Positions 1 to 32,000 are shown, numbered from the stretch's first letter. The stretch is 32,000 nucleotides of DNA from an archaeon (GCA_041677685.1 JBAYPN010000003.1:13506-45505); one strand, 5' to 3'. Translations and numbers: made by a program. Notes: generated from the sequence alone by a model not told the origin.

Positions 1-3000
1 AGAAACTGTACCATCTGCAGAGTTTGTTACACAAACTTCTCTAGATTTTATTTTTTCAAAAATATTATTAATTGATTTAATTTGAGATGCCTTGCCACTA
101 CTTCCAAAACTACTTGGGTCTAAAGAAACATCAATTCCATTTTGCTTTTGAACATTTATAGAATAATCTTTATTGTATGGTGTGTAAATTATTGATCTTA
201 AATAAACTTTGCCTTGGTAATTTACAATTGGCCATTCTAATTTATATCCGTTTTTAATTGGATCTCCTGCTAAGGTAATATGATCGAAGGTATTATTAAA
301 TGAAGAATATATGTCTTCTCCTGAAAGATCACAACCTTGTCCAACACCAGTCCATCTTGTAAATGTTTCTTCTCCATAAACAGCAGTATTATTAGAGTTA
401 TCCATTATCTTATAGTAGACTTCAAAAGGAGTAATCTTTGAGTTTTTTACAGACATTAAAACTGGAGTTGCAACACTTGGACTAAATATTAAATTAACAA
501 TATCTTCTGTAGATGTTATTTTTAAAATATTTCCTCTTGTTCCTACTTCTGAATTTATTTTAAAAATATTATCTACTGCTTCTATGTTTAAATATTTAAA
601 TGGATTTGAGCCTTTATCATAATAACTTCTTACTTGATCAACTTGTGAGGCATCTCCAATAATTATATCATCATTACCTGAATAAGCCAAACCATATCCT
701 TGTCTATTATATCCTGTGTCTGCATAACCTACAAGTCCATTAAATGGTAGTCTATAGAAAGCACTACTTGTTTCTGGTCCTTTAACATATGAGAAAGTAA
801 CAAAAGAATTTAGGTCTACTTTGTTATTGTTAACCATCTTCCAACCATCATTACCAAATATAAAGTCTATATCTATATCATAAAGTCCAGGTGTAAGAAT
901 GGTTACTTCTTCTTGATTTCCTGAATATTTTAAACTATAATTTAGATTATTTATAAACAATTTAGATAAGTACCCATCATCTGTCTGACCATTAAACATT
1001 CCTGGAGATGACATTAGAGCAAACTCTCCAACACCAGCACCACTATCAATAGATGCTTTTCCACCATAGGTTCTGTCGAAATCATTTTTGAAATTTATAT
1101 TATAATTATCAGTTATTAGCTTTGCTTTAAATTTAAGTAAATTTCTTAAAGTTGAAATGTCTTCTTGACTCCAACCATTACCCCCATTAACAGTCACATT
1201 TTCAGGATATTGGTTAGCATTAAACCACATGTCTATAAAGTCAATTCCATTATAAATTAAGGTCATTGCTGGAACTTTACAACCACTTGTTTCTGGAGCT
1301 TTATAATTTTCTAAAGTTATTTCTGTGGAGAAACTATTATACTCTGAATAGTTTCCTGTGTAGTTTAATGAAAGAGAAATGTTTTCATCTAATATCTTTT
1401 GAGTATTGGAACCAAATCTAAAGATTATGTCTGAAAAGTTATCTTCTCCAGATGGTGTTATTATATCATAACTATTTGCAATTGATTGCTCATCAAACTC
1501 TCCTGTTGAGTGATTATAAATTTCTACTTTTGTTGCAGGGTAATTTTCAAAAGTAGCAGTAACTGTTCCTGTTCTACTATCATTTGTTCTATTCTCTACA
1601 GACATATGCACAATAAACTGATTATCCTCAGTTCCAAATTTAACATCTGAGATTCCAACTTTTCCAAGAGGTATTTCATTTGTTACTCCATCTTCTTCTG
1701 CAACATATTGGTAAGTTCCTTCTAATGCTTCATCAGCAACTTGTTTATTGCTCTTTGGGCATTGAACATTTCTTTGCTCAATAAATTTTTTTGCTTTATC
1801 AATTCTATTTAAAATTACTTGAGTTAGTTGTGTTGCATCACAATAATTATCTTCACAATCATAAATATTATCTAAATCCCACTTCCAATCTAAGTTAACT
1901 TCAGGAACCGCACCTGGTCCAGTAAATCCAAGTTTATCTGAGTCTGTCATACAAGAATATACATTCAGATCAACATTTGGTTTTTCTTCAGTTTTTGGTA
2001 AATGGAATTCCACTCTATATTTTCCAATTCTTTGTGAGTCTTTAAAAGCTAAGTCTTGTTGACTTAAAGAATCATTTAAGGTTGGGTAGAAGTCGTATGT
2101 TTTATATTGACTTAATCTTGAACTATTCTTTATAACGTCATAAGCTGAATTATCAATAACAAAAGTAATTGGTTTGATTCCTGCTTGTTCAGGCCAAACA
2201 GTTTCATCTGAATTACATATTGAATAAATATTAAACTCTGCATTTACTTTCTTTCTAGGAATTGAACCATCACAATCTATTTTGAAATTTGTATAATCTT
2301 CATTTGATCCTGCTTCATCAACTCTTAAATTTGAACAAATACTAGTATTAATTATATCTAAAATATATTCTTGTTCTTCAACAACCGAATTTTGATAATT
2401 ACATTTTGGCACAACTACATTTAAAGTTTTATCTTCTGCTAACTTTCCTTTAATATTTACATATTTATTTAAATAAGTAGTATATCTTGCACCAGTAACA
2501 TCAAAAATATTTAGATATTCTTCCTCTAATTCATAATTATTTAAATTAATAACTTTTAATTGTTCAAAATCACTAAAGGTATATTCATCTGAGACATCTA
2601 AAATTCTATTTGATTCCTGAATATCATAATCAGATATAAAAATTGGAGTAACTAACATTGCAATTGCTGCAGTACCGGCAAGTATCCAACCAAATGGTGG
2701 CACTATACTACCTGTTACAATTATTGTTTTTAAACCAATTAATAATGCTACTGTAATAGTTGCTGCTGCTCCAGCCCCAATTGATGTTCCTAAATAACTT
2801 CCAAATCCAGGTCCATTAGCGTTAACCAAATTCTCTTTTTCATTAAATAACATCTTTGCAAAGATAGAAGAATCACTATCAAAGCCATCACTCATAAACT
2901 TAGAAAAACCATCTCCAGCTTTTTGAGTAGAATAATCCCAAGGTGTCTTTTTTAAATTATTATTATATAGTTTCTTTGTGGAAGTAACATAAGAATTATT

Positions 3001-6000
3001 TATATCTTCATTTACTTCAAAGAAAGGGTCGTCCATCCAAAGTTGGTCCTTAACATTTACCTTTAATGGCTTAGTAACTGAAGCTATTGCTCTATCATTA
3101 TTATCAAGAGCCTCTACCAACACTTCTAAAGTGTAAGCCCCAGGAACATCAGGTTTTTTCACACCAACAATTTTCTCTGTCTCTCCACTTCCAAAAGTTA
3201 TTTCATTTTGCTGAGTACCACTAACATTTTCAAACTTCAATTCTTGACAACCATAGTTTGTGGCTTTGTTAGGACATAAGGTTACCTTAAATCTTCCACT
3301 TTCAGAACAACTGTTTCTAATTATTAGTTCCTTACTTCCAACCTCATTTCCTAATACCCCAGAATCAATAACAAACATTCCACCAGGACTAATCTCTTTA
3401 TCATCACTATAAAAATCAAAACATTCAGAAATTTCTGTAATCTTAATCTCAGCTTCTAAAAGTTCTTCACCAGCACCATTATTAACATAAACAAGACCTT
3501 CATCAGTCTCTATCTGTGCATTTAGGTAAACTTTAGTTTTAATTTCTCCAAACTTGGTTCCAGCAGCATTATAACTTAAAACTGCAGAATAGTCTCTGTC
3601 AGCCTCAACATCTTCAACAACACTCTTATAAATCCCTTCTGTAAGCCTAATACTCTCTTGTCCAATCATCAAATCATAATAACCATATCTATCCCCTGAG
3701 GAAACAATCTTTGCTCTTATGTTTTTAAGGGTAGCTACTTGTTCTGGGTTTTCTTTTAGTCTACAATTGTTTTTAATAACAAAGTTTATCTGTTGACTTC
3801 CCCCACCATTAATAACACTCTTCCAAGGGTTAAAAAAGCCCTCAGCTATCAAGCAATTGTCTGAGTAAACACCACTACCCACAGATATCTTTGTTTTAAT
3901 TGGAATATCAAAAGCATACCTAGAACTTCCTTTCCTTAAATAACCAGTAATCACACCATCTAAGATCTCAGTTTCTACAAGATTTTTTGCATCTTGAGAA
4001 GGTACAATCTTAATGCTTAGCTCGTGAGAGGAGTTTGCAGGGATTACAAGTTCTCCTGAAATTTGAGTATTTAAGTAGTTTAAAGTTTTTCCAAGTGCTA
4101 ATAATGAAGAATATTTAAAATAAATATTTTCTGTTATAAAGTCATCTAATACAAGATCATAATTACTTTTATTATTGATTGTTATCTTTTCAACAGTTCC
4201 ATCAAAATCATTTTTATGAACATTTACAAGTAATGGTGAATCTGTTGTTAAAAGAGAACCATTTTTTGTAACTGACACAACTTCCTCAACAATTGGAATT
4301 TCTAAGTCTTTAGCAACATATGATGATTTATGTGCCCTAATTACAATTATTTCTCCTAGGTTAACAGCTGGCATAAGGATGTTTACTTTCCCTTCAGAAT
4401 CTGTTTTTAGTTTGCCAACAGATATTGCAAACATGTAATTGTTCATCTTTTGATAAACATCAATTGTTGCTCCTTCAACAGGATTTCCTGAAGCATCTTT
4501 TACCTTTACTAGCATATCAAAGTTTATGTTTGGTAAAATATTTTTTGGCTCATAATCAATTGTCATGTCATAGATCTTGTTTGAAAGTAAGTTAAGACCA
4601 AGATCATAAATAACCTCTTGTTCAGAAACAATAGTGTGTAATAATTTTGTTTGTCCAACATATAATGGGTTAATCTCCAAATTAAAATTTGTTTCTGAAA
4701 ATCCAGGGATGGTTGGTGCTGTTAGTTCCTCTCCATCAAATGGTATCTTAAAATTTTCTTCTCCATTATTTGAGTAACCTTGATCATTAAACACTCCTTC
4801 AATCTCATAACTTCTAATATTTACTTTTTCTGTTTTATAGTTTGAAAGATCTGTGTTTTTAATTATCATTCTTGCATTATCATAACTTATGGTTTTTGCA
4901 TTCTTTAAAGAATATTCTAATTTATAGTCTGAATTTATTAACATTGGAATTTCTAGGTTGCTTGCAATATCATATCTAAGATCTTCTTTAACATCTAAAA
5001 ACTGACCACTAAAACAAAATACCTCTGTACAAAGGTTTTCTGCCTCTATGTAATATTGATATTGTTGATAAGTGGAGATGTTAACTAAACTTCCAGAATT
5101 AGAGATGTATGATTTAAAGTAAACTGGGATCATGTCTCCAATTACAGCATTTCTTACTCTAACAGGAACTGACAACTCATACACTCCAGGGGTAATATCA
5201 CTCCACAAAAGATCAACTAACTTTGCTTCATTTCCAGAAGCTACAGATGTATCAAATGGATTGTTTGCATAATAAACAGGTACACCTAGGCTATTTACAA
5301 TTGCCTTAATATAAACAATATCATCACTAACATTATTTTTAGAACCAACTCTGAAAACAAAACCCATTCTGTCTTTTGAGATTGGGGTCACAATTCTAAA
5401 TTTAAAATAAAAGACTTCATTATTTTTTAAAGATTCAACCTTGCTTCCAGAGGTATTATAGACCCCCAGATAATCAGCTAATGGGACTTCTCCTGAATAT
5501 TCTGTGTACAGAACAACTTGTTTACTAACACTTCCATCTTTCTTTAGCTCTATGATGTCTGTAAAGTATGGCATATAGCCTTCTTTGTTAACTTTTAAAT
5601 AAATCTTCTTATCAGCCTTTAAAAGCTTAGAAAAAATCCCTGAGCTGTTTGAAAAATCTTTACCTATAAAGTTTCCATCAGAAGAAAAAATACTAACTTC
5701 ACAATCACTAACATTATCCCCATAGGAATTCTTGATCGCCAATTGAACAGTTGCTCTTCCAATCTCTACAGAAACCTCTAAGTTACTATCAACTGGAGGG
5801 GTGTGATTAAAGTCAGAGGAGTCTCCTTCCAAATAGTTCTTTTTAACTTTTAAAAAATAATTTCCAATTGGGATATCTTCAAACAAAACATCTCCATTAA
5901 CATCTGTTGTTTCAAAATTAAATCTAACATCAATATACCCAGTCACAGCATCATAGATTAAGACTTTTGCATTATTTACAACCAAACCATCTTCATCATA

Positions 6001-31848: not shown

Positions 31849-31872
31849 GCTTACTTTTTTAACTTAAGACAA

Positions 31873-32000
31873 TTATTTCCAACTATTACCAACATACACA
31901 CAAATCTTGCTACCCTTTGAAGTAAGCTTACAATTATTTTCTAAAGCATCTGGTTGGTTAACATAGATTGTTAAATAGTCAGAACCACCTAAGTCTAAAG
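31873..32000 (-). CDS. 3' end (41 codons plus TAA) of an upstream co-directional ORF. Product unknown.
   Basis: Hand translation of the minus strand from 31998 gives LDLGGSDYLTIYVNQPDALENNCKLTSKGSKICVYVGNSWK followed by TAA (31873-31875). The only support is a stop-free frame in AT-rich DNA and the same strand as all neighbours. Confidence 0.4.
   Translation of the reverse strand, partial: LDLGGSDYLTIYVNQPDALENNCKLTSKGSKICVYVGNSWK

Follow-up and report, generated by a model that had tools for sequence, protein, structure and literature searches.

The closest described relative of the locus reported here is a 42-kbp region of Candidatus Forterrea multitransposorum, an archaeon whose genome lacks the biosyntheses of lipids, nucleotides and many other compounds; the region encodes five membrane-anchored proteins of >1,800 aa, and the one sentence and cartoon devoted to it inferred a role in cell-cell interaction (Probst & Banfield 2018, PMC5905446). 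We analysed a 32,000-nt stretch of archaeal DNA (GCA_041677685.1, JBAYPN010000003.1:13506-45505), hereafter called the window. With moderate confidence it is read as the central 32 kb of a ~44.5-kb, vertically inherited cluster of Candidatus Iainarchaeota, which would encode a multi-component cell-surface apparatus with heads that contact a presumed host. The genes of the window are named p317 and g1 to g8 in transcription order, and the four very large proteins of the cluster are termed giants A to D, giantB, giantC and giantD being g3, g4 and g8, respectively.

The sequence of the Forterrea locus used for comparison covers positions 231,485-253,161 of the complete genome (CP045477.1, 839,632 bp; L026 among our related loci, with L040 an identical JGI contig). 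It holds giantA (2671 aa), a g2-like gene (559 aa), giantB (2323 aa) and giantC in the same order as in the lineage of the window, and the proteins are 35-45% identical to those of the window. In both cases several membrane-anchored proteins of >1,800 aa are encoded within ~40-45 kb, and the two clusters are syntenic and homologous; the window lineage differs from Forterrea-type loci by the addition of an M6 protease, a pilin, and Cys-rich and helical proteins. An earlier note on this DNA had treated the region as unrecognised, an opinion that the published remark on its Forterrea homologue overturns. No further characterisation of the locus was found in the literature that was searched beyond PMC5905446, with respect to which the pilin-like partner, the paralogue-specific orthology, the shared head module, the hairpins and the spread across the phylum are new.

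Archaeal type IV filament (TFF) loci encode large, immunoglobulin (Ig)-rich, adhesin-like proteins beside pilins, always together with genes for an ATPase and a platform protein (PMC4858521; bioRxiv 10.64898/2026.04.22.720090). Such adhesin-like proteins (arCOG05616, arCOG07037, DUF2341/PilY-like; Makarova 2016) resemble the giants in being large and beta-sandwich-rich, in being encoded beside proteins with class III signals and in their presumed role in adhesion. In contrast, the window locus has no ATPase, platform or peptidase gene, and its giants have an N-terminal transmembrane (TM) segment and a conserved cytoplasmic tail; Pfam and NCBIfam scans of the products gave no DUF2341 or PilY match.

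Bacterial giant repeat adhesins (the CnaB/SdrD/SpaA MSCRAMMs, the Big_1 proteins invasin and intimin, SiiE/LapA) also combine a tandem beta-sandwich stalk with a distinct distal region, and in them, as in the window giants, a conserved stalk bears a variable tip. The window giants differ in being archaeal, in having a signal anchor and none of the LPXTG, type I secretion system or autotransporter signals, and in forming a set of four paralogues with two fixed partners instead of a single adhesin.

The SPEARE proteins of the Nanohaloarchaeota, like other giant surface proteins of DPANN archaea and of the candidate phyla radiation, are giant extracellular proteins of genome-reduced symbionts for which host contact has been proposed. 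The window giants are likewise giant extracellular proteins of genome-reduced archaea; no sequence relationship to SPEARE proteins was found, and none of the SPEARE-type Pfam domains (serine protease, adhesion, restriction endonuclease) was present in any giant.

Origin and gene content of the window

Exact-protein look-ups identified the same sequence on ENA contig ERZ27247376 k141_1362552 (45,126 bp) and the same genes on NCBI contigs of metagenome-assembled genomes (MAGs; 75-141 kb), on a JGI contig of 139 kb and on ENA contigs as long as 88 kb. Over 14-22 kb, at least eight independent assemblies share 99.65-99.98% identity with the window, which is too close to inform a strain comparison for diversifying selection. 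Because the sequence recurs at this identity in independent assemblies, the DNA is neither chimeric nor eukaryotic, either of which would have counted against the reading in the earlier note. The MAGs carrying it are named 'Candidatus ainarchaeum sp.' at NCBI, and the lineage is Candidatus Iainarchaeota (Diapherotrites; kingdom Nanobdellati, DPANN). Iainarchaeota are tiny, probably host-dependent DPANN archaea.

Scans for open reading frames (ORFs) gave nine co-directional ORFs, all on the minus strand, which fill the window (positions 1-32000, to which all coordinates without a locus name refer) with spacers of 705-710 nt in sum, as had been stated before (~705 nt). No ORF of >126 aa was found on the plus strand. 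A search of the window for tRNA genes found none, and an Rfam scan gave zero matches. The GC content is ~30% across the window and 21-25% in the g5-g6 region.

As far as recognised, the cluster spans ~44.5 kb, beginning with giantA and closing with the gene for a 796-aa protein, and exceeds the window at both ends. Upstream of the window lie the fourth giant, giantA (2668 aa), and the rest of p317, which encodes a pilin-like protein of 317 aa; downstream of g8 a Cys-rich secreted protein of 213-227 aa is encoded, followed by the secreted 796-aa protein.

Topology was assigned from hydrophobicity (Kyte-Doolittle) and the positive-inside rule. Every product contains exactly one strong N-terminal hydrophobic segment, flanked on its N-terminal side by Lys/Arg residues in all products except g6; in g6 more Lys/Arg residues lie on the C-terminal flank, and its N-terminus is read as a cleaved signal peptide. 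Beyond these segments, the sole other hydrophobic stretch is an internal hairpin of the 2465-aa g8. Together with the invariant Cys residues kept among orthologues, these features lead to the prediction that the products of the locus are entirely extracytoplasmic. The exclusively extracytoplasmic content described in the earlier note is supported by this analysis, as is its statement that the genes are interrupted by no housekeeping, ATPase or regulator gene.

Gene order of the cluster in related lineages

The distribution of the cluster was analysed in 18 related loci from 14-15 distinct lineages, taken from metagenome contigs and GTDB species representatives, with ~20 kb fetched around each homologue match. 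The proteins of these loci are 31-52% identical to those of the window. Every one of the 18 loci keeps whatever part it covers of the order giantA, g2-like gene, giantB, giantC: the g2-like gene always lies between giantA and giantB, and the giantC orthologues always follow giantB. The sole related locus reaching further, L018, continues with a g7-like gene, giantD (39% identity to g8), the gene for a small secreted protein and that for a protein of ~800 aa. The best match of each giant in the related loci is its positional counterpart, that is, orthology is one-to-one.

The conserved synteny in related genomes is in line with the earlier note, the term 'island' used there is not: the locus is vertically conserved and, in two lineages, genes for NurA, an M48 (HtpX-type) protease and other housekeeping functions lie upstream of the cluster and of two small genes described below. 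The conserved order and the chromosomal neighbours identify a stable chromosomal locus and not a mobile island.

These findings define a conserved, multi-component locus, in which four giants with predicted membrane anchors are accompanied by two fixed partners, g2 and g7.

Anchors and stalks of the giants

The core set of giants comprises giantA (~2670 aa), giantB (g3, 20386-27414, 2342 aa), giantC (g4, 15392-20263, 1623 aa) and giantD (g8, 1-7317, with 2439 of its 2465 codons in the window; the full gene is found at L003 13120-20517). The three window giants are paralogous, as proposed before, with 22% identity over ~1000-1370 aligned residues and E-values of 1e-19 to 3e-40 (for g4 and g3, 22.7% over 1373 aligned columns, E=2.5e-40). 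The four giants of the core are anciently diverged, non-redundant paralogues.

All four paralogues, like most of the 101-102 long homologues that were recovered, start with a conserved motif of 35-75 residues, predicted to be cytoplasmic (consensus ...FYYKLEDKYF..LD.LEEKGI.LYKI.DPLEK.GIPTF; for the giants of the cluster, LEDKYY..LD..IP.YKI.DP.DK..PSF), which is followed in each giant by a single TM anchor with the N-terminus inside. A motif ΦPxF (Φ, hydrophobic residue), placed after a KG/NG position, is conserved in all four giants. The hypothesis that the giants are prepilin-like substrates cut after KG/NG, in front of the TM segment, was discarded: the Gly is missing in giants C and D, and the site is therefore not a prepilin cleavage site.

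Pfam family CarboxypepD_reg matched g3 in four stretches (E=9e-26) and g8 (E=1.5e-20), confirming the repeats of this type noticed earlier. The giants match only beta-sandwich families (CarboxypepD_reg, SpaA, SdrD_B, Big_1 and MG3/MG4), all within the N-terminal ~1000 residues. A hidden Markov model iterated on the window's own repeats placed stalk domains at residues ~65-145, four in tandem at ~245-600 and one at ~935-1015, the last being present in g3 and g8 and missing in g4. In g3 the domains map to aa 70-147, to aa 246-591 (four tandem prealbumin-like beta-sandwich domains, 25642-26679, E-values 6e-22 to 8e-20) and to aa 936-1015, and the tandem layout of g4 and g8 is alike. The giants are accordingly described here as carrying a predicted stalk of prealbumin/CnaB-like beta-sandwich domains.

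When the giant family profiles were compared with the PDB, weak matches to the CnaB2 fibronectin-binding domain, to cellulosomal scaffoldin (no domain assigned) and to coiled coils were obtained. Searches against PDB sequences with g3, g8, g7, g6 and the giantA and giantB family profiles yielded nothing, or only matches of the Ig/CnaB/coiled-coil type, and the distal halves of the giants matched no family in Pfam, NCBIfam or PDB sequences. The bMG3 model scored above its cutoff in g3 (39.2 versus 34.9 bits) and below it in g8 and giantA, and MG4 was marginally above its cutoff in g3 (25.3 versus 24.7) and below it in g4 and g8. These MG3/MG4-like matches are isolated, with no TED or A2M_TED match and no CGEQ motif, which speaks against membership of the alpha-2-macroglobulin/thioester family.

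A catalytic signature was also looked for in the conserved stalk block at aa 600-800 and rejected: only R, G, K and two Cys residues are invariant across the paralogues, and the block is therefore probably structural.

The 11 orthologues of giantB are 32-44% identical to g3. Among 12 giantB orthologues the pairwise identity is 0.52 in the first 100 residues, 0.54 at aa 600-700 and 0.28-0.35 in the distal third. A lower distal than proximal identity is expected if the tip meets a variable partner.

A linker of ~115 residues, in which Tyr, Asn, Gly, Gln and Phe make up nearly the whole sequence (MYNNYYGGNINRY...NYNYGAGYFNQSYNG), was noticed inside the extracellular part of g3 (aa ~1287-1400, 23215-23556, as judged by reading the sequence). 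In the orthologues this low-complexity composition is kept and the length is variable, with 27% gaps in the alignment block.

GiantC (g4) has the same anchor and stalk as the other giants and lacks the head motif described below; its sequence appears to end in a short coiled-coil-like tail, in front of which lies a Gly/Ala-rich amphipathic segment.

Distal heads, g7 and the hydrophobic hairpins

An element W..C..(Y)YCD(A/Q/S), followed by a helix, is common to giants A, B and D and to g7 and is absent from g4. In giants B and D and in g7 a Gln residue is located four residues after the Cys of this element; the distal head of g3 carries it as YYCDQEQ. A reading of YCD(A/Q)xQ as a thioester site was rejected: motif and spacing differ from CGEQ/TED, no TED match was obtained, and invariant Cys residues nearby point to disulfides. 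Giants A, B and D are predicted to carry a cysteine-knotted distal head that belongs to no known family.

The gene g7 (7407-10436) encodes a predicted secreted core component of 1009 aa, for which no match was found in Pfam, NCBIfam, PHROGs or PDB sequences. Residues 583-982 of g7 are 30% identical to residues 2061-2448 of g8 (E=4e-29), and a second block, g7 aa 310-423, matches g8 aa 1767-1855. By this alignment g7 duplicates the distal head module of giantD as a separate protein. A profile of the module matched 669 clusters at the 50% identity level (419 with E<1e-30), most of the matches being C-terminal in proteins of 2200-3250 aa. Among the top proteins with the head module 101 of 148 are at least 1900 aa long, and an N-terminal TM segment is present in 98 of the 102 homologues of this size that were scanned; the named members belong to Diapherotrites, with one Micrarchaeota. 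The AlphaFold2 (AF2) model of g7, built from a 13-sequence alignment, is weak (predicted local distance difference test, pLDDT, 58), and Foldseek matched it only to generic Ig-like beta-sandwiches, e.g. NPC2 and FN3.

The internal hydrophobic hairpin of g8 (aa ~1509-1562, 2632-2793) is located at the junction of stalk and head and is predicted to consist of two TM-like, Gly/Ala/Thr-rich helices joined by PPFG, with Kyte-Doolittle peaks of 1.9-2.1. It aligns with a less hydrophobic, Gly/Ala-rich amphipathic hairpin of g7 (aa 58-94, GLNPIVHGLLGGAFSGF, 10155-10265), which AF2 predicted with low confidence as helices 58-73 and 77-94; in 11 g7 orthologues P77 is invariant and G81 nearly so. Hairpin-like hydrophobic segments occur in half of the giant homologues (50 of 102), where 94 of 111 such segments sit 800-1000 aa from the C-terminus, and Gly/Ala-rich amphipathic stretches of similar form are found near the C-termini of giants A and C.

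The pilin-like proteins g2 and p317

The core component g2 (27594-29351, 585 aa) has a short basic leader, KG/F, a hydrophobic stretch of 21 residues and a long N-terminal helix, followed by a globular domain of ~500 aa with eight invariant Cys residues; the junction of leader and mature protein reads ...NQKG/FNLFTALVSLMLISITLVLIF. All of its 56 homologues are full length, and all those with a named source are archaeal. The AF2 model, built from 48 sequences, has a pLDDT of 86.8 and a predicted template modelling score (pTM) of 0.83 and shows a helix that spans residues 17-84 and, in addition, a globular body of mixed alpha/beta structure.

No match to g2 was obtained in Pfam, NCBIfam, PHROGs or PDB sequences. 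The N-terminus of the minor pilin ComGF gave weak, sub-threshold matches in 29 of the 48 family members (best E=1.7e-4; for g2 itself, E=0.027); Glu5 is missing, and neither Pfam N_methyl nor Class_IIIsignal was matched. Since no fold match was found (see below) and the ComGF matches are weak, the resemblance of g2 to pilins is one of anatomy and not of curated family membership.

Only the C-terminal 41 codons and the stop codon of p317 lie in the window (31873-32000); the full gene is located at L009 4589-5542. Its archaeal pilin-like product starts with MFELFKNSKG/QISVEVLTIVGILVIGGIIF (QISVEVLTIVG...), which corresponds to the QxSxExxxL class III signal type, and gave weak matches, below cutoff, to TIGR04205 (E=0.002) and to Pfam Class_IIIsignal PF04021 (E=0.053). 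The pilin anatomy, defined as a basic leader, Gly/Ala at -1 and a hydrophobic stretch of ~20 residues, is present in both g2 and p317; the long N-terminal helix was modelled by AF2 for g2. Both proteins would be substrates of a class III signal peptidase, the gene of which would lie elsewhere in the genome.

Accessory genes

The gene g1 (29476-31818) encodes 780 aa, or 787 aa from an alternative GTG start at 31839. Its product scored above the cutoffs of TIGR03296 (116.9 versus 110.8 bits) and Pfam Peptidase_M6 PF05547 (E=1.7e-10; 41.1 versus 22 bits), contains the zinc motif HExxHxxGxxD as HEFAHILGLPD (aa 298-308 of the 787-aa form) and matched Bacillus InhA in the PDB (4yu5, E=3.9e-5). These results substantiate the M6 core recognised in the earlier note, and g1 is predicted to be a bona fide M6 (InhA-like) zinc metalloprotease, secreted or anchored. 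It shares with Bacillus InhA the M6 catalytic domain and the zinc motif and differs in being archaeal and in having ~390 residues C-terminal to the catalytic domain (~460 counted from the zinc motif), a region without a recognised family.

The gene g5 (14514-15353) encodes a predicted secreted protein of 279 aa with 16 Cys residues, without a family match in Pfam, NCBIfam or PHROG scans; over its first 98 residues it shares 32% identity with the N-terminus of g6. The product of g6 (10522-14499, alternative start 14511; 1325/1329 aa) is likewise predicted to be secreted. Its Pro+Gly content is 2.4%, and in the 3.4-3.7-residue band the power amounts to 2.2 times the mean, with local values of up to 4.2 times. 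Because of the low Pro+Gly content and the strong 3.5-residue periodicity g6 is probably almost entirely helical, as was proposed before; no Pfam, NCBIfam, PHROG or PDB match was found.

None of g1, p317, g5 and g6 is present in the 18 related loci examined, and in relatives giantC directly abuts the g7 homologue, without g5-g6. The GC content of g6 is 21%, compared with 30% elsewhere in the window. The low GC content and the absence of the pair in relatives make g5-g6 look like a later insertion. Within the cluster only g5-g6 and the protease/pilin pair behave as insertions; g1, p317, g5, g6 and the downstream Cys-rich proteins are lineage-specific additions with predicted secretion.

Possible functions of the cluster

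In the interpretation that we favour, the giants would project from the membrane as long stalks and, together with g2 and g7, might form a hetero-oligomeric surface structure. The less conserved distal heads would contact another cell, presumably the host of these metabolically reduced archaea, and g1 would trim or release components. A role in host attachment would agree with what was guessed for the homologous Ca. Forterrea region. The surface apparatus proposed in the earlier note is thereby retained as far as extracytoplasmic content, paralogy, synteny and archaeal origin are concerned, and corrected in its 'island' label and in the unrecognised status given to the region.

Several observations weigh against host contact. 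Foldseek searches of the g2 model against the PDB and BFVD gave no match with E<=0.001; no lectin, cadherin, integrin-like or thioester domain was recognised in the heads by Pfam and profile scans; and the g7 model is weak (see above). Moreover, host-range determinants are often more variable and patchier in distribution than this cluster, the strict conservation of which as a whole set fits an essential envelope structure equally well.

Such a structure is the main rival, and considerably less probable than host contact: the cluster could be the cell envelope itself, an S-layer-like or fibrillar coat needed by every cell, with no specific role in host binding. The fixed order and one-to-one orthologues in every relative examined, and the investment of ~5% of a ~0.84-Mb genome in the cluster, are what would be expected of it, and the products are Cys-rich, sequon-rich and beta-sandwich-rich, as is typical of archaeal surface layers; we know of no other envelope protein for the Iainarchaeota phylum. 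No S-layer family was matched in Pfam or NCBIfam scans, however, and a C-terminal hydrophobic segment is missing. In archaea, S-layer proteins are usually made with a signal peptide that is cleaved off and are held by a C-terminal TM or PGF-CTERM anchor, whereas the giants have their signal anchor at the N-terminus, with a conserved cytoplasmic tail in front of it. In addition, four non-redundant giants with a pilin-like partner exceed one- or two-component S-layers in complexity, and a distal third that is the least conserved part argues against a mere coat.

It is rather unlikely that the cluster encodes the substrates and adhesins of a TFF machine located elsewhere in the genome, with g2 and p317 as minor or tip pilins and the giants as pilus-associated adhesins or envelope adaptors. 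The pilin-like leader and long helix of g2, the class III signal of p317 and a class-III-like RCC1-propeller protein beside the cluster in one relative could be accommodated in this way; large adhesin-like proteins rich in Ig domains are frequent in archaeal TFF loci, and TFF systems occur in DPANN genomes (PMC4858521). Against it, neither the window, nor the other genes of the cluster, nor the 10 kb upstream of it in two lineages (L040, L044) yielded a TFF ATPase, platform protein or prepilin peptidase. Furthermore, g2 departs from the strict motifs (no Glu5, no N_methyl or Class_IIIsignal match, sub-threshold ComGF), and giants C and D lack the Gly at the position needed by prepilin peptidase.

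An extracellular capture and degradation system, in which the giants and the M6 protease would bind and break down polymers or prey envelopes and so feed an auxotrophic cell, is very unlikely. It would make use of a bona fide M6 protease, suit relatives that are auxotrophic for many building blocks (PMC5905446) and give a meaning to the weak profile matches to cellulosomal scaffoldin, but the g1 protease is absent from the related clusters and no hydrolase, carbohydrate-binding module or dockerin/cohesin family was recognised in any core component.

An origin of the locus as a mobile or horizontally acquired island, or as an artefact of assembly, to which the drop to 21% GC in g5-g6 and the breaks of several assemblies near g1, g2 and p317 might point, is hardly credible and largely refuted for the core, if not for accessory genes that may be insertions, by the recurrence of the sequence in at least eight independent assemblies, the order and chromosomal neighbours conserved across the related lineages examined, the uniform GC of ~30% outside g5-g6, the lack of any integrase, tRNA or PHROG match (eight products scanned, g3 and g8 left out) and the negative comparison of the g2 model with BFVD by Foldseek.

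If the cluster does encode an apparatus for contact with a host, this could go further than adhesion. A membrane-engaging intercellular bridge, in which the hairpins insert in the host membrane or form a shared helical bundle or pore, is improbable. The N-terminal anchors and conserved cytoplasmic tails would then hold the symbiont end, and the two membranes, tethered in this way, would allow these archaea to take up lipids and metabolites that they are unable to synthesise. If true, this would be a new and long-sought protein machine for cytoplasmic or membrane contact between DPANN archaea and their hosts.

Host attachment and uptake by DPANN archaea are an open question, and no attachment machinery has been defined for Iainarchaeota. 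The present analysis turns a one-line remark on one genome into a defined, phylum-wide gene set of four giants, a pilin-like partner, a free head, cytoplasmic tails and hairpins, as predicted from the sequences; it provides a confident model of g2 with a predicted novel fold, separates the conserved core from the lineage-specific additions (protease, pilin, helical protein) and names concrete targets for metaproteomics, labelling in cryo-electron tomography and the prediction of complexes. Should the function be ordinary adhesion or that of an envelope layer, the value of these findings would be mainly descriptive.

Neighbouring genes and other observations

A 111-aa protein with four TM segments is encoded directly upstream of giantA (L026 1374-1706; L015 655-987; L040 and L044 10001-10333). 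It is 63-92% identical between lineages whose giants share only 35-45%. In Forterrea-type lineages its gene is preceded by that of a winged-helix protein of 152-154 aa, and the two may serve the cluster as conserved membrane partner and as regulator, respectively.

Extra genes are inserted in some of the related loci. For example, L030 contains genes for proteins of 433 and 184 aa, and in L044 (7939-9486) a 516-aa protein with an archaeal class-III-like signal and six RCC1 repeats (a beta-propeller) is encoded beside the cluster.

The Cys-rich protein directly downstream of g8, outside the window, measures 213, 219 or 227 aa in strains that are ~99.9% identical (L003 20663-21304; L005 20669-21328; L006 20669-21352); the 213- and 227-aa forms differ, at least, in the copy number of P-Q-G-E-P-S-G-D repeats. 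At the downstream end of the cluster lies the gene for a secreted protein of ~800 aa with a Cys-rich N-terminus and Gly/Asn/Asp-rich repeats (GNGGNGGDGG), the character of which suggests a beta-solenoid (L018 20659-22893; L003 21460-23028). The L018 and L003 versions have diverged beyond detection by BLASTP, and a metagenome scan with the 796-aa protein gave zero matches.

Assemblies end at p317 (L001, L010, L011), upstream of g2 (L012) and upstream of g3 (L013, L014). The breaks of several independent assemblies in the p317-g1-g2 region hint at strain-level variation or repeats there. In MAG GCA_028690785.1 (L002 174-4967) giantC was called with 1597 instead of 1623 aa, 26 codons shorter, from DNA that is 99.9% identical.

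The sole noteworthy tandem repeat of the window is an array of 5.2 copies of the 8-nt unit TTTTCTTA, located at 20297-20337 in the g3-g4 spacer, directly upstream of g4.

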